Source: Alphaproteobacteria bacterium (lineage in GTDB: Bacteria > Pseudomonadota > Alphaproteobacteria > MPNO01 > UBA830). From it: 64,000 nt of DNA. The stretch lies in contig OZ219790.1 of NCBI GenBank assembly GCA_964291215.2, positions 928,001 through 992,000 of the forward strand. Reading direction: 5' to 3'. The position numbers and the translations under genes were made by a program. The notes below the pieces were generated by a model. The model was not told the DNA's origin, did no database searches, and worked only from the letters and a program-made list of their open reading frames with translations. The first letter of the stretch is position 1, and each line of letters begins with the position of its first letter. Of the stretch, positions 52,700 through 64,000 are shown in pieces.

Positions 52700-53612
52700 G
52701 TGACCGTTGGGCTGGGGATTGGCCGAACGGGAGTACGGCCGCAGCACGCACCCGGACGACAGGATCAGGCGCCGGATCGCGCAGATGGGCGCGGCCTGGA
52801 CCCGGCGTCTCGGCGAGCACCTACCGGCGATCTTCCCGGGGCACACAGAACAGGTGGCGACCTACCGGTTGCTGTCCAACGAGGCGGTGAGGATGGAGTA
52901 CATACTGGATTCGCATGTCGAGCAGACGGTGGAGCGGTGCCGCGCCGAGCGGCTAGTGCTGGCCGTGCAAGACACGACCACGCTGAACTACGACGGCCTG
53001 TCGGGGACATCGGGCCTCGACGACCTCGCCGGTGGCGGCAAGGGCACCTCGGGCATCCTGGCCCATGTCGGCATGGCGGTGAACGCGGTCGGACGGCCGC
53101 TCGGGATGTTCGATGCGGACGCGGACTTCTGCCAGGCTGAGGGCAAGGACAGTGTCCGCTGGATCGCCGGTCTCGACCGGGCGCAGGAACTTGCGCGCGC
53201 CTGTCCGCATACCCGCGTCGTGACGGTCTGCGACCGGGAAGGCGACTTCCGGGAGATGAACTCGCGGGCCGAGGAGACCGGGGCGTCACTGCTGATCCGG
53301 GCGAGCCAGGGAACGCAGCGCCGGGTGGCGCTGCCTTCGGGCGACGACGCAGACCTCTGGGACCACGTGCTGGAAACGGACCCCGTCGGAAGGCGCCGGA
53401 TCGTGGTTCCCGCCTGCGGCGGCCGAACCGCAGGAAGGGCCGCAAGGCGAAGCTGACGCTGCGCTGCGCGCCCGTGGACCTGCTTGCCCCGAAAGACCGG
53501 GCGGGCGAGGGGCCGATTCGCGTGATCGCGGTCTCTGCTCTCGAGGAAAACCCGCCCCGTCGCGGCGGGAAAGAAGGGCGAGCCGCTGCACTGGATGTTG
53601 CTGACCACCGAG
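52700..53612 (+). mobile_element. IS4 family (Tn5-like) transposase fragment
   Basis: YRLLSN, VLAVQDTTTLNY, VCDREGD, HWMLLTT; truncated by an IS256 end. Confidence 0.85.
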
Positions 53613-53621
53613 GGGGGGGGG

Positions 53622-53689
53622 GGTACTGTAACTTGATGTCTGGAAATTTGTCTGAGGTTTGCGCTTTGAGGCGTTTCACTGGGGGGCTA
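53622..53689 (+). mobile_element. IS256 left-end fragment
   Basis: GGTACTGTAACTTGATGTCTGGAAATTTG equals the reverse complement of the 41410 end; cut at CTAG. Confidence 0.85.
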
Positions 53690-54901
53690 GTAGTCCACCG
53701 GCATTGTATTGATGGTTTTTTGTGGGTAGTATTTTCGTGTCGGCGTTCGTTGGAATCTGGACAGTGCCGATATCCACACGGGCAAGATGCCGAACAGGCA
53801 GGCAGCCCCATGCGCAGGTCCGGACAACGGGCATGCCCGCAGGTCTTCGGCGCAATGACAGGAGCAGCGCATATGGCCAACTCTCGGGGCAGGAAGCTCT
53901 ACCGGGTGACCCTTTCAGCGCAGGAGCGCCGGGATCTGAAGGCGATTGTCGACGGCACCGGGGCTGCCTGGCGCCGGACACAAATCCTGATGCTGAGGGG
54001 GCGCTTGTCGATGCCGACATTGCGCAAGGGCTGGGCATCGGCACGGCGACGGTCGAGCGCTTGCGCAAGCGCTGCGTCCTGGAGAAGCTGGACGCCGCCC
54101 TCAGCCGCAAGGAGCAGGTGAACCGCCGGCCAAAACGGGGGCGATGGAGGCGAAGCTGGTCTCGTCCCCGCCCGAGGGCTGTGGACGCTGAAGCTGCTCG
54201 CCGGCCGTCTGGTGGAGATCGTCGAGCGCATTTCGGAAGAGACGGTCAGGAAGACGCTAAAAAAAGAGATCAAGCCGTGGCTGAACTGGTGCATTCCACC
54301 GCACCGGAGCGCACAGTTCGTGGCGGCGGACGTGCTTGACATTTGTCAGCGGGACTTTGCCAGGGACGAGGTGCTGAGACCAGCCGGCAGCAGACGAAGG
54401 ACCCCCCCCCCCCGTCCTCCGGTCAGCCGGAGGTGGTCGACTATGAATATGAGCGCAACGGCACGGCCAACCTCTTCATGGCCTTTGCGCCCAACGAGAA
54501 CTGGCGCACGGTGAAAGTCACCGACCGCCGCGGGACTGGGCGCACTTCATCCGGGAGCTTGCCGACGACCATTTCCCCGACAAGAAGATCGTGCTGGACA
54601 ATCTGAACACGCACAGTCACTGTATGAAGCCTTCGAGCCCGAGGAGGCGGGTACGAAAGCGGTTCGAGTTTCGCTATACGCCAAAGCATGGAAGCTGGCT
54701 CAACATGGCCGAGATCGGTGCGCTGTCGTGGCAATGCCTTCGGCGACGCATTCCCGACCGCGACACCATGCTGCGGGAGACCGTGGCGTGGGTGGAACGG
54801 CGCAATGCGGCCGATGTCACTGTCGACTGGCGTTTCACGACGAAGGATGCCCGGACGAAACTGAAGTCTCTATATCCGTCAATCCAATAATGCCAGACTA
54901 C
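53690..54901 (+). mobile_element. Decayed IS630 element (different from 41589)
   Basis: WTLKLLA, SEETVRKTLKK, DYEYERNGTANLF, LDNLNTH, YTPKHGSWLNMAE; CTAG at both ends. Confidence 0.9.
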
Positions 54902-56412
54902 TAGTTGGGTTCTGATTGGTCGTAGTGCTCGTTGATGATGTCTGCGGCTTTTCCGTCGAGGGCGATCTGGGTGGCGACGAGTGGGTTGTAGCCGAGTGCG
55001 GCCATGGAGGTGAGGTAGCTTGAGCCCCGGCACCATGCTTTTGCGTGGAGCGGAAGCATCCGGACACCTTGACCTTTGCCATCCTGATCTTCTGTTCTCC
55101 GGCATTGTTGGTGAATCTGACGTCGGGGTCGTCTGTGAAGCGCAGGTTTTCGTGTTTCACGAGACGTTCGTGCAGGTTGTGCGCGTCGGACTTGCGTCCA
55201 CGTTTTCCTTTCGGCGGCGGCGGGATGTCGGGCAGTTCCCTGGCGCCCTGATGGTGCGGTAGCGCTTGCGCCCGGCGTCGTTCAGGGTTTTGGATGCGCT
55301 CTTGTTGACCTTGTGGCAGACCTCGCGGAGCAGGCTCTTCATCAGTCGCGCGGTAGCCTCGACGACAAAGGTCAGTTCGCGCAGCAGGTGGCTGCCACAC
55401 AGCTGGTGGCTACACTGGCCCATGTACGAGGCCCAGGACGTCCTTGTAGCACGGGCCGATCTCTTGCCCGCGCTTGCGGTGCGGGAACTTGCACGTCAGG
55501 GTCCCACGACATGAAACCACTTGCTGTTGATCCGAAATCATCGACATCGGGCGTTGCAGGAGGTACGCCACGGCGGCCTCCTCCCATGACGCATCGTGAA
55601 AGCATAGCTGAGGCAGGTTGCCTCGGAGAGCTTGATGCCGGAGATCGCCTGCACGAGCGCGACGGCACGGCGCAGGGACAGCATCTGGGCGACCAGCAGG
55701 TTGATGACGAGAGCCTGGATGCCGATGCCGTACTGCACGGGATGTTGTCGGGGAACCGGCCCTTGGTCCGGGCCTTGCACTTCGGACATTCCTTGATCTC
55801 GGCGCGGCGCTCGACGACCTCGAACACGATGTCGTGCGGCGCTCCCGATCGATGGGGCCGTCGATGTCGGTGCCGCAGGCGTCGCAGGCCGCGACCGTCT
55901 CCTCGACGATGATCTTGCGCAGGTTGTCGCCCATCTGCCGGTTCGGCTTCGGGCCGTTGCTCCCGGCACGCTCTTGTCCGTCTGTGACGGCGGCAGACCG
56001 GAGTTCCGGCTCGTGCGTGGTCTTCTCCAGAAGGACGACGATGATGATGTCGAGTAGGATGACGAGGACGCGGATGACGGCCTCTTCCGCCACTTTGCCG
56101 GCCGCACGCAGCGCCACGATCTTGGCCGCTTCGAACTCCTCGCGCGCCGCCCGTCGCCATCACCCGGCCTTGCGCTTCATCAGCGCGCCGCTTCCGAGAT
56201 GCGTTTCCACATACAGATCATGCGGGGGCTGGAGCCCCGAAAGCAGCTGGCACAGCCCGCTCGTCGCCTTCGATCCAAAGTAGCCCACTGGCGGTCCCCG
56301 TCGTTCTCGATGACCACCACTAAACGAATCGGCCTGCAGTGTCAAATCTCCACGAAAACCCGTTCGTTGCTCTACCCCGACATCAAGCTGGAACCAGGGG
56401 GTGAGCAGTTAC
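54902..56412 (-). mobile_element. Decayed IS66-family element (copy 1) with adenine-methylase passenger fragment
   Basis: End GTAACTGCTCACCCC; CGSHLLREL, FTNNAGEQKIRMAKVKVSGCFR; GYFGSK..YVETHLGSGA. Confidence 0.85.
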
Positions 56413-57058
56413 GTACGTTAGATTGATAGATCCCGGACCATGTCTTCCTGTCGTCATCGTCTCGTCTCCTTCAGGCGAAAGCCCATCTGCAGCGCCCGTC
56501 GACCGCCGGAGAAGGCGCACGACGGGGCGGCAGGTCACTGAAGGATGAGAGTTGGAGCCGCAGCCCCTGGAGGGCCGCGACAGGGATCGTGCCAGAGAAA
56601 GCTGATCCGCCCGCAAGGCCGTCCTGTCGCCGGCGCGGCGTGCGCGCTCTCGCGCGCTGCCCGGTAACCTGTTCATCTGGCCGCGCCCGGCGTTCCTCCG
56701 GAGAGGACGCACGGGCGGGGAAGACAGCAGTCAGGCAGGAGCGGCTCTCCCGAAGGCGACCCGGCAGACCGGCGCCGGAAGCCGGCAAATGCAAGACATG
56801 AAGAAGCGCGAGGCGCGATTCTACACCGTGTTTGAGCCGCGGAAGTCAAGTCCGGATACACCCGTCGCTACGATGGCGCAGAACCAGTAACCCGTTGCGC
56901 AGCCCCGCACAAGCCGCCCGGACGCCGATTGTCCCGACCTGTTGCATCCGTGCCACAGCCCGCAGCCGAAGGGCTCCCGCACGCCGAGCCTGCGCCGTTT
57001 CTGCCCCCTCCGGCTGGCGCTCTGTTCGGCGTTTCTCGCATAACTCTGGCTCGGCGCG

Positions 57059-59428
57059 TCAGCCGACGAAGTCGAAATCGGCCTCGGTCAGTTGCGACGC
57101 CTGGACCCCCTCCAGGGTGACAGTCCCCGACCACCAGGTAATGATAGCGCCGCTGTCGGTCTGCCGGATATCGAGGTCGTCGAAGCCGAGTTCCGAGTCG
57201 ACCGAATAGAAGGCGATTTGGTCCCTCACGAGCCTCCCGTGATCGAAATCGAGGATCGTGTCGTCGCCACCATACGTGAATCCGAACCGGTCGCTGAGGC
57301 CCGCGCGGCCCCGGAGCGTGTCATCGCCCATGCTGTCGTCGAGTATCAAGTGGGGCTCGTATAATTCGACCGGGACGTGGGCAAAGACATCAGCCTTGCT
57401 CAGTTGCCACGTCTGAATCCCCTTCAGGGTGATGGTCCCCAAGGACCAGGTGATGACGGCGTCACTGCCGGACTGCCGGATCTCAAGGTCGTCGAAGCGG
57501 TACTCCCCATCGACCGAGCCGAGGACGATGTAGTCCGTCCCGTCCTCAAAGTCGAGGATCGTGTCGTCGCCGCCATCCTTGAATCCCCACTTGCTGGCGT
57601 AGCCCTCCGTTCCGAAAACAAAATAGTCGTTGCCCTCCCCGCCCCGGAGCGTGTCATTGCCCAGACCGCCCGAGAGCCAATCCCAGCCTTTGCCGCCTTC
57701 CAGCAGGTCGTCACCGTCACGACCTCTCAGCGTGTCGCTGCCATCGCCGCCCCAGAGCTCATCGTCACCCGAGTTGCCGCGGAGGTGGTCTTTCCCCGCG
57801 CCGCCATAGATCTTGTCATCACCTTTTCGACCGTAGAGCTTGTCGTCACCCGAGTTGCCGTAGATCGTGTCGTCGCACGCGGTGCCAAAGATCGACTCGG
57901 CGCCTGCACCGCCATGAATGGTCTCACCGCAGACCTCAGCGTCGTCGAGGGGGTTGCCGCCGTCGTTGTCATTGTCGAGGGGGTTGCCGCCGTCGTTGTC
58001 GTCGTCGAGGGGGTTGCCGCCATCGTTGTCGTCGTCGAGGGGGTTGCCGCCATCGTTGTCGTCGTCGAGGGGGTTGCCGCCATCGTTGTCGTCGTCGAGG
58101 GGGTTGCCGCCATCGTTGTCGTCGTCGCTCGTACTGGCGCCGTAAGCGGCCTTTTCGTGATCGTCGCCGCCAGAAGGCAGGATGAAGTCGTCCTCGCCGA
58201 GGGACGCCGCCGACACGCCCGACAGCCTGATCGTGTCGCCGCCGCCGCCGTAGCGAATGACGGTATCGGTGCCGTCCTGCTCGATGACCAGCGCCGCGAA
58301 TCCGCCGGACTCGCCGTCGAGGCGAATCCGGTCGCCGGCTCCGAAGTCGGTGATCGTGTCGTGGCCGTCTCCCGCCACGAACACGAAGGTGTCGGCGCCC
58401 TTGCCGCCCCCCAGCGTGTCATCGCCCGCGCCGCCGCGCAGGGTGTCGGCACCCCTGGCGCCGCGCAGCGTGTCGTCGCCCGCGCCGCCGTCCAGCGTGT
58501 CGTTGCCCTTGCCGCCCCCCAGCGTATCGTCGCCAGCCCCGCCGGTCAGCGTGTCGGCGCCCAGGCCGCCATAGAGGAGGTCGTCGCCGGCCCCGCCGGT
58601 CAGCGTGTCGGCGCCCCCGTAGCCACGCAGGGTGTCGTCGCCGGCCCCGCCGGTGAGCGTGTCCGCGTCCTTGCTACCCTTCAGCACCTCGCCGCCAGAA
58701 GGCCCGCCGCTCGAGGCGTCGCCGGACGTGCCCTCCGGCGGCGCGCCCTGTGCAAGAGCGTCCTCGCCGCCGCCCTCCGGCGGGGCTGCCTCGACGGGAA
58801 GGAACCGGAAGTCGTCCGCGCCAAGGGAGGCCGCCGTCACGCCCTCCAGCTTGATCGTGTCGCCGTCGCCGTAGCGGATGACGGTATAGAAGCCCTTCTG
58901 CTCGATCACCAGATCCCCGAAACCGCCGGACACCCCGGCAATCTCGATGATGTCGCCAGCCTCGAAATCGCCGATGTAATCGGCCCCGTCGCCGACCGCG
59001 AACGCAAAGACGTCATGGCCACTGCCGCCATAGAGCGAGTCCGCGCCCCGGCCGCCGGTCAGCCTGTCGGCGCCCCGGCCGCCTTCCAGACGGTCGTTGC
59101 CCGCACCGCCATCCACCGTGTCGTCCCCGTCGCCGCCATAGAGCGTGTCGTTGTCCGTGCCGCCGTCCAGCGTGTCGTCGCCAGCACCGCCGTCCAGCAC
59201 ATCGTCGCCAGCACCGCCGTCCAGCGTGTCATCGTCCGAACTGCCGGGGTTCATGAGGAGAAAGTCCGCGTCGGCACCCGGGCTTGCGGTTCCGCCCGTC
59301 AGCGTGTCGTCGCCAGCGCCGCCCGTCAGGATGTCGTCTCCGAGGCCGCCTTTCAGGATGTCATTGCCGAGGCCACCCGTCAGGGTGTCGTCGTCGGCGC
59401 CGCCGGTCCGGGAAATATTCTGTGTCAT
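57059..59428 (-). CDS. RTX/hemolysin-type calcium-binding repeat protein (probable T1SS substrate)
   Basis: Many GGxGxDxL nonapeptides in four modules; C-terminal DFDF; GAGGAG RBS. Confidence 0.92.
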   Translation of the reverse strand: MTQNISRTGGADDDTLTGGLGNDILKGGLGDDILTGGAGDDTLTGGTASPGADADFLLMNPGSSDDDTLDGGAGDDVLDGGAGDDTLDGGTDNDTLYGGDGDDTVDGGAGNDRLEGGRGADRLTGGRGADSLYGGSGHDVFAFAVGDGADYIGDFEAGDIIEIAGVSGGFGDLVIEQKGFYTVIRYGDGDTIKLEGVTAASLGADDFRFLPVEAAPPEGGGEDALAQGAPPEGTSGDASSGGPSGGEVLKGSKDADTLTGGAGDDTLRGYGGADTLTGGAGDDLLYGGLGADTLTGGAGDDTLGGGKGNDTLDGGAGDDTLRGARGADTLRGGAGDDTLGGGKGADTFVFVAGDGHDTITDFGAGDRIRLDGESGGFAALVIEQDGTDTVIRYGGGGDTIRLSGVSAASLGEDDFILPSGGDDHEKAAYGASTSDDDNDGGNPLDDDNDGGNPLDDDNDGGNPLDDDNDGGNPLDDDNDGGNPLDNDNDGGNPLDDAEVCGETIHGGAGAESIFGTACDDTIYGNSGDDKLYGRKGDDKIYGGAGKDHLRGNSGDDELWGGDGSDTLRGRDGDDLLEGGKGWDWLSGGLGNDTLRGGEGNDYFVFGTEGYASKWGFKDGGDDTILDFEDGTDYIVLGSVDGEYRFDDLEIRQSGSDAVITWSLGTITLKGIQTWQLSKADVFAHVPVELYEPHLILDDSMGDDTLRGRAGLSDRFGFTYGGDDTILDFDHGRLVRDQIAFYSVDSELGFDDLDIRQTDSGAIITWWSGTVTLEGVQASQLTEADFDFVG
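57941..58127. repeat. 30-bp tandem repeat x6 encoding DDDNDGGNPL
   Basis: Units start at 57941, 57971, 58001, 58031, 58061, 58091. Confidence 0.95.
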
Positions 59429-59640
59429 CGCGCTCTCTCCTCAACATATGGGTTTCCATCGCAGGGCCATGACGGCATTGCCTCGCCGAAAGGCCGGTTC
59501 CGCCCACCAAGCCGCCCACTCGCAGAACGCATCCTACCCGGCGCATCCGGCCGTTGCAACCGAATTCGGCCCGGTGGCACGGTGATCCCGCGCTGCTAAT
59601 CCGGCGACGACTGGCGAGATTTTCTCAGTTTGCGTCGCGC

Positions 59641-59656
59641 TGCAATCGTGCCGCCA
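59641..59656 (-). promoter_or_regulatory. Candidate sigma54 promoter facing the RTX gene
   Basis: Minus strand TGGCGGCACGATTGCA (GG-N10-GC). Confidence 0.45.
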
Positions 59657-59675
59657 AGGCTCGATGGGACCTTCT

Positions 59676-59690
59676 TGGCACGAAAATTGC
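59676..59690 (+). promoter_or_regulatory. Candidate sigma54 promoter
   Basis: TGGCACGAAAATTGC matches the TGGCACG-N4-TTGC consensus exactly. Confidence 0.6.
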
Positions 59691-60204
59691 GATCAAGGAG
59701 GCGATCTGTGATGAGCCGAGCCCCAACGCATTCGGATTTCGCGTCTCTGAATTAGTGCCTGCGAAAAAAACATAAAATCGCTTGATTTTTTTGTAGAATC
59801 CTGATATAGAGGGGATGAAGAATCTCGCTTTGGGGTAGGAATTGGACGATCAGACCGGAAATCCACCGGATTTTCGGAAAACTTCGCGAGAATTGCCATG
59901 CGAAACGTTCCGCAGCTGGAATTGGGCCAGGTTGCGATCGAGAAGATCGATCTCAGCAAAGACTCGCGGGATGACATGCGCGGGATTCAGCACGTGTATG
60001 CCGACCCGGCTGTTCAAGATCCTGGAGGAGGGGACCCTTCCGAGAGTGTCCCACAGGAAAGCGCGTCCCGGCGTTGTGGAAGATTCTGGTGTCCTGAAGC
60101 AGAGCTTGGGGTATGACCTTATATGACTAGGTTTTGTCCCCTTGATGATGAAATCATCCACAGCAGTTGGGGGCGGGAAAATGTGGATCTGTGGGAGAGC
60201 TATG

Positions 60205-60392
60205 GTTGCAGAGAGATTCCGCTCCCCTGAGCGAACACGCACAGGGGAGCGGGGATCAAACGATCTCCGCGGAGGTTGCCGTTTTGACCTTGACAGAGCC
60301 GCGACCGAGTGTGGTCGGCCAACCTCCCTTGACGTCCCTCGCTGGATGCTTGGGTTTGAACCCGTATCATCGTAAGGCGAGGAGCAAGGGAC
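60205..60392 (+). ncRNA. IS110 bridge RNA
   Basis: 5' hairpin plus two internal-loop stems whose guides match the target (TGACCT / CGAG) and donor (TGGATGCT / TAAG); boundaries approximate. Confidence 0.85.
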
Positions 60393-61146
60393 GATGGTCA
60401 AGATAGTAGCAGGGGTCAGCAAGGCCAGTCTGGACATCTGGCGCATTGTTTTGCGAACGACGCCACGGGCAGGTGGCTTCGCGGCCTCGGGGTGAGCCGG
60501 GTGGTGGGCGACAGGCCGCTATCACCGCAAGGTTCACCAGTGTCTTCATGACCGGGGCTTCGAGGTTATTCTCGTCAACCCGTTGCGGGCGCTTCGCCGA
60601 GGCGATGGGCCATCTGGCCAAAACCGACCGCGTCAACGCCAAGATCGGCTGGGCGATCTTGAGCCTGTGGCTCCGCCTTCCTCAAGAGCCTGGAGGATCT
60701 CTTGGTGCCGCGCTTGTCGACGCCAAGCAGGTGGCAGATGAGGTGGATGGCGAGACCGTCACAAGGGCCTCGGCGGCCGATCTCAATGATCGCATTGCCG
60801 GCGCGGCGATCAAAGCGGTGATCGCCGGTGATCCCGAGCAGAGGTACGCCATCCTGACCTCGATCCCCGGTCCGGTGACCGCCGCGGCCCTTCTGGATGC
60901 CCGAACTCGGCAGCGTCGGCAGCCTTGATCGGGGTGGCGCCGATGGCCAACGACCACGGTGCTCGGCACATCCGTGGCGGGCGCCGAAGGCCACGCGATC
61001 TCCTGGCCGCAACCGGCACGCTTCAACGCGAACCTGGTGCGCCTCAAGACTGCCGGCAAGGCCCACAAGGTCGCGATTGTCGCCGTGATGCGCAAGCTCT
61101 GGCGAACACCCTGCTGCGACAGCAGCGTTGCCTGAAGCACCGGTGA

Positions 61147-61353
61147 GTGAGCGAAGGAGACACGGCCCTCACCCCTGCCGAGAGCGCGATCGGGACTGTC
61201 TCGACAGTCTCCCTCTACGACACGACTTGGGGAGAATGTCTGCAGATCATCGTCGAGGCCGACATCGAGGAGACCGAACCGCCTTGGGACACCTGGAACC
61301 CAATTGACGACGGTCACGTGCCCGGGGACGGCAAGGTAGCCGCGTTCACGTGA
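61147..61353 (+). CDS. Small acidic ORF inside the IS110 right end
   Basis: 68-aa open frame starting right after the recombinase remnant; no motif recognised. Confidence 0.3.
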   Translation: MSEGDTALTPAESAIGTVSTVSLYDTTWGECLQIIVEADIEETEPPWDTWNPIDDGHVPGDGKVAAFT

Positions 61354-62727
61354 CCAATGGACGGCAACCCGCCGCCGGGACCACAAGCTTCATGTCGCCT
61401 CGCTCGCAGAGCAAACCCCACACCGCTTGTGGACAACCACAGAAAACATCACCGCAGACACCCGCAAAAACCTTGCCAAGAAACATGGATGCTCGATCAT
61501 CTGCACGAACTGGTGAACGAGACGGTTCGCAAGTTCCTGGACCACGGCGATATCCGGGACAACACGAGGTACAGCTATCGGACGGTGCTGGAGAACGTGA
61601 GCCATCTGACGCCGGAAGTGCTGGAGAAGGTATCGCAGCTGGTGGCTGAGAGCGGCCATGCGATGGTCCGCAAGAGCAAGTCGGACGGGTCCTTTGCGGG
61701 GCCGCTGCGATTCGTTCGTGGTGCACTACCCGACGGACGTCAACCTGCTGTGGGATGCGATGCGTTGTCTGGTGCGCGGCCGTGTTCGCGGGGGTGGCGG
61801 CAGTGGCAGCATCGGAGTCGCGGGAAGCGCTTTCAGAAGGTTTCCGGCGGGCCTCTTCGGAGGATGGTACCTCGACGACAGCCGGGAGTTGGAGCGCAGG
61901 AGACGGTTTCGGCACTTGTGGAGAAGGGCGTCGGGGCCTCCAGGATTCACAAGATCCAATCGTATCTCAACCATGCCCGCCGGCAGATCGACCAAGTAGA
62001 CCGCCGCCTAAGGCGAGAAGATCCCGCAGGAAGAGAGGGTGTTTTCGATCTTCGAGGAGCGCTGGTGCGTGAAGGGCAAGTGCCGGTGGCCGTGCTGGAG
62101 GACCAGCACGGCTTCCTCCTGCACCACCGGATCCTGTGGGAGGGCAGTGACGTGGACCATGCGGTGCCCATGATCCAGGAAGCACAGGCTCGCTTCCCCG
62201 ATCTGCGCCTGTGCAGTTTCGATCGCGGGTTCCACAACCCCTCCAACCGGATTGCACTGGACGAGTTGCTGGACGCGCTGCCGAAGAAGGGAAAGCCTGG
62301 TCGGGCGGACCGGGAAGCTGAGACGACGTTCCGGGAGATGCGCCGACAGCATCCGGCCGTGGAGTCGGCGATCAATAATCTTGAGCAACGCGGCATGGAC
62401 CGGGTCCTGTGGGGCGGACGGCTTTGCGCGGATGGTGGCGCTGTCCATGGTGGCCTTCAATGTCCACCGCCTGCTGTTGCACGGACGGGCCCGACGACGA
62501 CGAAAACGCGCCGCCTGACGGCGGCGTCCCTCCACCCCACCCACCCGCCGGGAGCGGGAACGGAGCCGCTCGTCCGGCTTCTCGGCTGGAAGAGCCCTGA
62601 TACCGTCGCGAATCAGCAGGAATCCCCCCGAAAACGGAGCGGGACCCGGAAGGGCGATCAAACCAGAAATTTCGCCGGAATCTCAGCTAAAACGGTCATT
62701 TCCGCGCGGGCACGAATTACCAAAATA

Positions 62728-64000
62728 GTATCTACTCACCCCTTGTTGGGTTCTGATTGGCCATAGTGCTCGTTGATGATGTCTGCGGCTTTTCCGTCGA
62801 AGGCGATCTGGGTGGCGACGAGTGGGTTGTAGCCGAGTGCGGCCATGGAGGTGAGGTAGCTTGAGCCCCGGCACCATGCTTTTGCGTGGAGCGGAAGCAT
62901 CCGGACACCTTGACCTTTGCCATCCTGATCTTCTGTTCTCCGGCATTGTTGGTGAAGCTGACGTCGGGGTCGTCTGTGAAGCGCAGGTTTTCGTGTTTCA
63001 CGAGACGTTCGTGCAGGTTGTGCGCGTCGGACTTGCGTCCACGTTTTCCTTTCGGCGGCGGCGGGATGTCGGGCAGTTCCCTGGCGCCCTGATGGTGCGG
63101 TAGCGCTTGCGCCCGGCGTCGTTCAGGGTCTTGGATGCGCTCTTGTTGACCTTGTGGCAGACCTCGCGGAGCAGGCTCTTCATCAGTCGCGCGGTAGCCT
63201 CGACGACAAAGGTCAGTTCGCGCAGCAGGTGGCTGCCGCACAGCTGGTGGCTACACTGGCCCATGTACGAGGCCCAGGACGCCCTTGTAGCACGGGCCGA
63301 TCTCTTGCCCGCGCTTGCGGTGCGGGAACTTGCACGTCAGGGTCCCACGACATGGAGCCACTTGCTGTTGATCCGAAATCGTCGACATCGGGCGTTGCAG
63401 GAGGTGCGCCACGGCGGCCTCCTCCCATGACGCATCGTGAAAGCATAGCTGAGGCAGGTTGCCTCGGAGAGCTTGATGCCGGAGATCGCCTGCACGAGCG
63501 CGACGGCACGGCGCAGGGACAGCATCTGGGCGACCAGCAGGTTGATGACGAGGGCCTGGATGCCGTACTGCACGGGATGTTGTCGGGGAACCGGCCCCGG
63601 GCCTTGCACTTCGGGCATTCCTCGGCGCGGCGCTCGACGACCTCGAACACGATGTCGTGCGGCGCTCCCGATCGACGACGCCGTCGATGTCGGCGCCGCA
63701 GGCGTCGCAGGCCGCGACCGTCTCCTCGACGATGATCTTGCGCAGGTTGTCGCCCATCTGCTGGTTCGGCTTCGGGCCGTTGCTCCCGGCACGCTCTTGT
63801 CCGTCTGTGACGGCGGCAGACCGGAGTTCCGGCTCGTGCGTGGTCTTCTCCAGAAGGACGACGATGAGGATGTCGAGCAGGGTGACGAGGACGCGGATGA
63901 CGGCCTCTTCCGCCACCTTGCCGGCAGCGCCGCGGTCTTGGCCGCTTCGAACTCCTCGCGCGCCGCCCGTCGCCATCACCCGGCCTTGCGCTTCATCAGC
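62728..64000 (-). mobile_element. Decayed IS66-family element (copy 2, runs off the window)
   Basis: End GTATCTACTCACCCC; near-identical to 54904-56183. Confidence 0.88.

Follow-up and report, generated by a model that had tools for sequence, protein, structure and literature searches.

Among the described systems closest to the element analysed here is the insertion sequence (IS) IS621, whose bridge RNA has two loops, each with a stem, a left guide, a stem-loop, a right guide and handshake bases, and whose promoter lies across the junction of the two element ends (PMC11208160, PMC11208158). Covariation of guides with targets over 5,511 pairs has been published together with low conservation of the target loop (PMC11208160). 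In the seekRNAs of ISEc11 and ISXne4 the scaffold is kept while the stretches matching the target are changed (PMC11187229), a pattern similar to the one described below. We analysed an IS110 element between two CT cores at 60118 and 61493 of a 64,000-nucleotide (nt) stretch of alphaproteobacterial DNA (assembly GCA_964291215.2, contig OZ219790.1, positions 928,001–992,000), which we call the window. At a probability of roughly 0.85, the best explanation is a decayed IS621-type element with a recombinase pseudogene, four deletions in its bridge-RNA region and a target guide that would have been replaced after insertion by exchange with other copies.

The likeness to IS621 extends over the whole element: a long left end with a 5′ hairpin, a target loop and a donor loop (alignments A1 and A2) lies upstream of a gene for a DEDD/Tnp recombinase of ∼315 amino acids (aa), a CT core stands on both sides, and the order and strand logic of the guides, the handshake bases after the right guides and the layout of the junction promoter agree. 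The original prediction, made from the window alone, had proposed this architecture and had assigned the left and right target guides (LTG, RTG) and the left and right donor guides (LDG, RDG); both hold, as the layout matches that of IS621 and the guide registers covary with the sites. By its sequence the element belongs to the IS110 family, IS110 group, IS621 type. The IS1111 group (group features as in PMC11208160 and PMC11187229) was rejected: it would need a non-coding RNA downstream and long subterminal inverted repeats, and here the RNA region is upstream. Pieces of the stretch 60394–61146 align (E 7e-20) to the intact protein P0001 (315 aa), encoded by a genome of the same genus. P0001 scores above the NF033542 cut-off, carries PF01548 (DEDD RuvC-like) and PF02371 (Tnp) and in the PDB finds IS621 at E 4e-27 and, as a second solved relative, the ISCro4 bridge recombinase (9t56) at E 3e-25, the latter distant in sequence and compared by protein. 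Recombinase paralogs in the same genome pass the Pfam cut-offs; the window pieces on their own reach PF01548 at E 0.05 only. Rfam searches over window positions 58000–64000 matched no model at E up to 1. Differences from IS621 lie in the donor and target sequences, in a right target guide that here extends over 7 nt, in left-guide positions 1–2, which are not read, and in the state of the window copy, a pseudo-element with deletions in RNA and enzyme. Nearer relatives (loci L108–L112, proteins P0118 and P0120) share ∼84% DNA identity, the ends and the RNA scaffold, and their own guides fit their own sites; they differ in being uninterrupted at 1,840 nt, in their target guides and in the donor, CT-TGTAT, to which their right donor guide is matched.

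The assembly that holds the window (6.15 Mb in two contigs, C1 and C2; 64% GC; 99.3% complete) is rich in repeats, 20-mers with at least three occurrences covering 28.6% of its bases. Its insertion sequences are nested in islands, and long stretches, such as window positions 1–30000, are without repeats. BLAST with the element ends found 64 left and 70 right ends in this genome; 62 left ends could be parsed, and 57 copies with both ends <1,700 nt apart were taken as full. From other genomes we examined 57 of 80 related loci, 55 of which have a parsable target loop and yield 35 unique guide–site pairs; matches without the N-terminus, the truncated left ends L015, L043 and L050 and several partial or weak matches were omitted. 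A DNA search of 60 related genomes gave weak matches in three only, intact P0001 among them, and a 400-genome sample of the class gave three distant relatives at 44–46% identity. Short-read contigs from three runs, including X1 and X2, were used to check deletions and junctions. One X1 contig is identical to the assembly across a 19.3-kb unique stretch, so that X1 is probably its source sample, while X2, with 132 differences over 16 kb, comes from another strain.

The CT cores, the guide strings TTTTGACCT and TGGATGCT, ACCGAG (60304–60309) and GTAAG all lie where the original prediction had placed them (Table 1). CT recurs genome-wide in the same register, after an ATGGAT(G/T) donor in 68 of 70 right ends and at an intact boundary in 41 of 62 parsed left ends, the remaining left ends being truncated; the proposed boundaries and the reading of the donor junction as ATGGATG-CT-TATAT are thereby supported. 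Excision had been expected to restore the target and the frame of the host, a probable ISNCY-type element. Exactly this empty site is found in an uninterrupted host copy at C1:916846, with GYDLDHLHEL in frame, and a short-read contig of X2 skips exactly the 1,374 nt separating the two CT cores. The left and right host parts are contiguous in nine uninterrupted paralogs in the genome; a decayed host paralog, L097, has NF033593 as its best family (E 3e-40; 138 bits against a cut-off of 325). Only one of the nine keeps the full site, the others being altered at position 10 (four copies), in the core (three) or by a deletion (one). The sequence of the circle junction occurs neither in the assembly nor among the listed contig joints, which, since contigs drop rare variants, is not evidence. 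A −35-like hexamer of the right end and a −10-like hexamer of the left end are 17 nt apart in the window copy and eight relatives, and a promoter is predicted at the joined ends, with a function that would be that known from IS621. In several copies in the genome, e.g. C2:3385611, the left and right flanks belong to different site classes, which points to rearrangements among copies.

Collecting other insertion sites, as had been proposed, does bear out the guides. Over the 35 pairs from relatives, left guides match their sites at 141 of 245 positions (85 in shuffles) and right guides at 151 of 175 (77 in shuffles), neither value being reached in 20,000 shuffles; the relatives are kin, so these p-values overstate. 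Positions 4–7 match in 25–30 and positions 10–14 in 26–33 of the 35 pairs, position 3 is weak (19/35) and, in this clade, positions 1–2 go unread (9/35 and 5/35). In 31 of the 35 pairs the handshake base of the donor loop forms a pair with target position 7. Among unique pairs of the window's own genome, matches to own flanks amount to 85/115 on the left (62.8 expected; p 5e-5) and 65/85 on the right (53.5; p 3e-4); for five other genomes, each with two or more guide sets, shuffling within genomes and pooling the results gives 81/115 against 67.3 (left, p 0.007) and 65/80 against 50.0 (right, p 0.003). The target-guide reading of the original prediction thus keeps its registers and changes in extent: the right guide comprises 7 nt (60303–60309), of which six match the present site, and left positions 1–2 drop out. 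This right guide, GACCGAG, is the common one and pairs 7/7 with sites of the class CT-CGGTC, so that the ideal target, proposed as TTTTGAC-CT-CGGT, is better written as roughly TGAC-CT-CGGTC, a site class that the family does occupy. In the best copy of each of 16 site classes in the genome, the guides match 9/9 in five classes, 8/9 in four and 5–7/9 in seven. All sites of the guide set shared by L018–L020, L039, L040 and L066 have one right-guide mismatch in common, at position 13.

The RNA had been described as looking intact. Compared with the intact relatives L108 (1,841 nt) and L111 (1,840 nt), both 84% identical to the window copy, it is without 7, 6, 5 and 8 nt after ∼60248, 60278, 60294 and 60342, i.e. 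near the foot of the 5′ hairpin and linker, in the outer stem of the target loop, in its inner stem-loop and in the donor-loop stem; three of the four fall in helices conserved and covarying among relatives. Over the whole element 35 segments (466 nt) are missing, 20 of them 5–8 nt and none 1–4 nt long, against gains of one or two single bases. All 13 relatives in alignment A2 have the 6-nt outer-stem segment, as do C1_1320149, L006, L108 and L111. The 8-nt loss took the inner donor-loop stem, a linker and the first donor-guide base. The helix CCTCGC..GCGAGG, formerly read as the donor stem, is an alternative pairing left by this loss, the conserved stem pairing with 60380–60393, and the 8/8 donor match of TGGATGCT stands as a match, of the remnant of a 9-nt guide without its first base. 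We regard the deletions in the window copy as real, because short-read contigs carry the same junctions: those at 60248, 60278 and 60294 are bridged by contigs, which show further 5–7-nt indels. In the 62 parsed copies the 5′ stem segment is kept once, the stem-loop 28 times, the 3′ stem segment 26 times and the donor stem 27 times; all four are kept in C1_1320149 (L091), which has no right end. L091 (C1:1319513–1320149) has A as its donor-loop handshake base and T at target position 7, a compensated pair. The helices were drawn by hand on 18 sequences and tested for covariation on the same set: 92.4% of cells are paired and 11 of 31 pairs changed on both sides, as in 0–1 of 500 shuffles. The left end as a whole (60210–60395) folds better than its shuffles (z −4.8), while the two loops folded alone do no better than theirs (z −1.65 in the window, −0.6 in L006, −1.2 in L092).

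The recombinase is dead, as originally stated: none of five scored motifs is present in the window copy. No full copy in the genome has more than two of the five, the first catalytic Asp motif surviving in 2 of 57. The 124 matches to P0001 in the genome are partial pieces or two distant open reading frames (ORFs), at C1:480800–482100 and C1:883400–884800, which are intact, ∼410 aa long, 25–26% identical to P0001 and of another group. These two ORFs were apparently spared the decay. Presumably they cannot use the window RNA. No intact cognate recombinase was found among the 57 full copies, and therefore there is no partner in trans. The window element is likely inert, because the enzyme gene and the guide-RNA region both carry deletions.

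A sister copy, C1_342437, occupies the same host site and has the same left guide, and its right guide pairs 7/7. Between it and the window copy there are 22 differences, against seven between the window copy and C2_2248871, which sits elsewhere, and a tree outside the RNA part joins the window copy and C2_2248871 at 100/98, most of the tree being unresolved. Because there are seven substitutions to this paralog and 22 to the same-site sister, the interior is demonstrably mosaic and appears to derive by exchange from a paralog at another site. The mismatch to the target thus probably arose after insertion, and insertion by a tolerated mismatch or half match, though conceivable, is not needed to explain the site.

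The history that we propose is as follows. The ancestor would have moved like IS621, as a circle joining ATGGATG-CT-TATAT, with the joined ends forming a promoter and with an RNA whose guides paired, around the CT core, with both donor and target. When the element entered its ISNCY host, the right guide most likely matched the site in full, as that of the sister still does. Short-patch exchange among ∼60 paralogs would then have replaced the interior, right guide included, and is likely to have spread 5–8-nt deletions through RNA and enzyme. Guides probably changed by point mutation, by selection for sites still free, and by exchange of left and right modules in patches.

Table 1. Features of the IS110 element and its host site in the window.
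Feature	Position	Strand	Basis
Left part of host ISNCY-type element, decayed	59760..60117	+	contiguity in nine paralogs; NF033593 match on L097
Left target GTATGAC, positions 1–7	60111..60117	+	sequence; empty site C1:916846
Left CT core	60118..60119	+	sequence; genome-wide ends
Right donor TATAT and predicted −10 half TATGAC (60122–60127)	60120..60127	+	17-nt spacing to TTG-type −35
Bridge-RNA 5′ hairpin, 7 nt missing near 3′ foot	60219..60252	+	fold; alignment to L108, L111
Target-binding loop; outer-stem 5′ strand without 6 nt after 60278	60271..60327	+	helix covariation; relatives
Left target guide TTTTGACCT, positions 4–9 match site	60282..60290	+	covariation in relatives and paralogs
Remnant of target-loop inner stem-loop, 5–6 nt lost	60291..60300	+	9 nt vs 13–20 nt in relatives
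Right target guide GACCGAG and handshake TG	60303..60311	+	covariation; handshake by analogy to IS621
Donor-binding loop, 8 nt lost after 60342; 60380–60383 left unpaired	60333..60393	+	relatives' alignment; covariation
Left donor guide remnant TGGATGCT	60343..60350	+	sequence; relatives
Right donor guide GTAAG and handshake GC	60372..60378	+	guide follows donor in relatives including L108, L111
Recombinase pseudogene (DEDD RuvC-like, Tnp), frameshifted, catalytic motifs lost	60394..61146	+	alignment to P0001; motif scoring
Right end: predicted −35 half TTGCCA (61473–61478), left donor ATGGATG (61485–61491)	61147..61491	+	genome-wide ends; spacing
Right CT core	61492..61493	+	sequence; genome-wide ends
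Right target CGATC, positions 10–14	61494..61498	+	sequence; empty site
Right part of host ISNCY-type element, decayed	61494..62720	+	uninterrupted paralogs

Target guides evolve far more rapidly than other parts of the element, each following the site of its own copy. The 62 parsed copies in the genome carry 12 left and eight right guides, and the two target-guide windows rank 2 and 5 in diversity among 1,340 windows of 5 nt (0.37 and 0.32, mean 0.057). In one other genome, L014 and L016 differ at 10 of 12 guide positions, at 5 of 184 neighbouring RNA-region positions and at 14 of 178 four-fold sites; L021 and L055, at 98.8% identity and with common flanks, differ at three right-guide positions, L021 having the right guide of L016 and L017 and the flanks of L055. 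L014, L016, L017, L021 and L055 thus show five guide combinations on elements 89–99% identical, all in one genome, and one left guide occurs with three right guides in a single genome. By comparison, the transposases of ISEc11 and ISXne4 are 72% identical and belong to separately named elements (PMC11187229), while here siblings of 89–99% identity stand within single genomes and, unlike in that case, left and right guides recombine in new combinations. Because each copy fits its own guide, the RNA would seem mostly to guide its own circle. The simplest reading of guide change is likely mutation, selection for free sites and patchwise exchange. Novelty of the guide set as such, which had been claimed, does not hold, thousands of orthologous guide sets having been analysed before (PMC11208160). 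In the literature searched, which was incomplete, we found no report of guide divergence among sibling copies within one genome, with the reservation that the supplement of PMC11208160 may list guide–target pairs of this clade.

Several other explanations deserve to be weighed. One is that the element was inserted with its present guide through a tolerated mismatch or half match, the perfect guide of the sister being a later change. Relatives do show imperfect sites (74–94% match per right-guide position), half-match insertion has been reported for IS621 (10.64898/2026.08.31.748434), and the right guide of the sister is found also in C2_889760, at another flank. Still, such a history requires that the matching base, and no other, arose by chance, while a unique guide fitting its own site recurs at a site with TCAC on the left and CGCTC on the right and a 9/9 copy exists for 5 of 16 site classes; the interior of the window copy is moreover mosaic by tree and substitution counts, and the mismatch tolerance of IS621 is low (PMC11208160). 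We consider this history unlikely, and the tolerated-mismatch insertion of the original prediction finds no support, the same-site sister pairing 7/7 and the window interior being closest to a paralog at another site. For the clade at large, one could imagine a localized process of guide diversification, by which guides are rewritten, or swapped as cassettes between siblings, far faster than silent sites change; we hold this to be a rather doubtful, speculative reading. Distinctly improbable is that a dedicated process rewrites target guides, for instance by copying from the target at insertion: the guide divergence far exceeding silent-site divergence and the several sites having each their own perfectly matched guide pair speak for it, but left positions 1–2 are unmatched, recent copies (L018–L020, L032, L033) keep mismatched guides, and selection with patchwise exchange can account for the pattern. 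Routine copying of the guide at insertion is ruled out by those unmatched positions and retained mismatches.

The deletions admit readings of their own. Shortened RNAs of the family may have stayed functional, some copies moving after they had lost segments. In subfamily B the outer stem has lost 6 nt from one strand and 5 nt from the other, and what remains is perfectly paired over 10 bp; 61 of 62 copies are without the 5′ stem segment, 18 copies with both deletions keep inner stem-loop and donor loop, and doubly shortened copies (e.g. of the C1:340552 and C2:2335969 type) occupy several site classes matching their guide. Yet lethal recombinase deletions are shared just as widely, so that sharing would reflect exchange after death, and the window copy has two further RNA deletions without a compensating one; activity of shortened RNAs is accordingly improbable in our view. 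The suggestion of an intact RNA that a sister recombinase could use in trans draws on four readable guides, a well-folding left end, the action of the IS621 bridge RNA in trans in Escherichia coli (PMC11208160) and the low read-through transcription reported for integrated IS621 (PMC13626964). Against it are the four RNA deletions, three of them in conserved helices, the binding of stem and stem-loop features by the protein in the IS621 structure (PMC11208158) and the lack of an intact cognate enzyme in the full copies and among the P0001 matches, and we regard it as very improbable. Most remote of all is the notion of an intact element whose deletions and mosaics were introduced in assembly. 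In its favour, no copy is free of them, and repeats of this density are hard to assemble; on the other side, short-read contigs of three runs, one from the different strain X2, carry the same junctions and more 5–7-nt indels, deletions are common to several copies, and the 19.3-kb unique stretch is identical to the X1 contig.

Our preferred account of decay and later guide exchange has weak points of its own. It is drawn from DNA sequence throughout. The direction of the right-guide change follows from one sister copy, and the mosaicism could partly be an assembly effect, as the contigs used do not extend far enough to phase an entire copy. At the 60342 junction the listed contig pieces have only 7 nt on one side, none of the listed gap-free contigs having 31 nt on both sides. 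The hand-drawn structure came from the same sequences on which it was tested, so that the covariation test leans its way. Much of the guide–site covariation in the window's genome is covariation between subfamilies, themselves kin; taken singly, none of the other genomes is clearly significant (best p 0.05), and 7 of 16 site classes have no copy above 7/9. The 15 sibling pairs compared for guide and silent-site divergence were chosen by hand from copies whose guides differ, and in another genome one guide pair is common to eight copies, L028–L035.

Short deletions are common in the repeats of this genome beyond the IS110 copies. Comparing repeats in sampled windows (900 of 2,629 high-copy windows of 500 nt), we found 1,260 of 1,641 distinct clean gaps of 3–16 nt to be 5–7 nt long, with a mode of 6. 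Gaps of 5–8 nt occur at 2.76 per kb in high-copy against 0.44 per kb in low-copy repeats of similar substitution divergence. Dense 5–7-nt deletions are seen, e.g., in the window at 53000–56500 and 59700–64000, and short-read contigs confirm them. In IS110 loci of five other genomes 1 of 57 gaps has this size, and in two genomes of the same genus 5 of 7 and 3 of 10. Microhomology is enriched at the gaps, yet 376 of 1,344 have none; there is a weak TCGA bias (57 against 17). In unique DNA, which is mostly coding, comparison with strain X2 gave one 7-nt loss, within a tandem repeat, against ∼160 substitutions. Ku, Piwi and NucS families were not found in the 99.3% complete genome; MutS is present. 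One idea is that, when copies exchange sequence, mismatch repair misses loops of at least five bases; MutS recognition would then have a loop-size limit, on which a literature check found nothing usable. The process may merit a separate follow-up.

The surroundings of the element add a few observations. An intact 789-aa protein (57059–59428, minus strand) contains RTX calcium-binding repeats in 11 stretches, besides an internal tandem repeat; its toxin-family matches are all below cut-off, and its DNA is multicopy in the genome. Two decayed transposase-like remnants, at 55372–56163 and 63251–63979, have the same short deletions; we take them to be IS66-like. A fragment at 56160–56345 may be related to a DNA adenine methylase.

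The window element is one more IS621-type IS110, dead, and one of ∼60 in its genome. It carries two warnings: readable guides need not mean an intact RNA, and a guide–site mismatch in a multicopy family can postdate insertion. For the family, its value lies in a natural series of guides and sites on almost identical scaffolds, which shows the positions that are read (about 3–14, not 1–2). If guides were diversified by a localized process, this genome would preserve its fossil record, in the form of five or more sites each fitted by their own guide pair on near-identical scaffolds. The question of guide retargeting is directly testable using the intact relatives L108 and L111.

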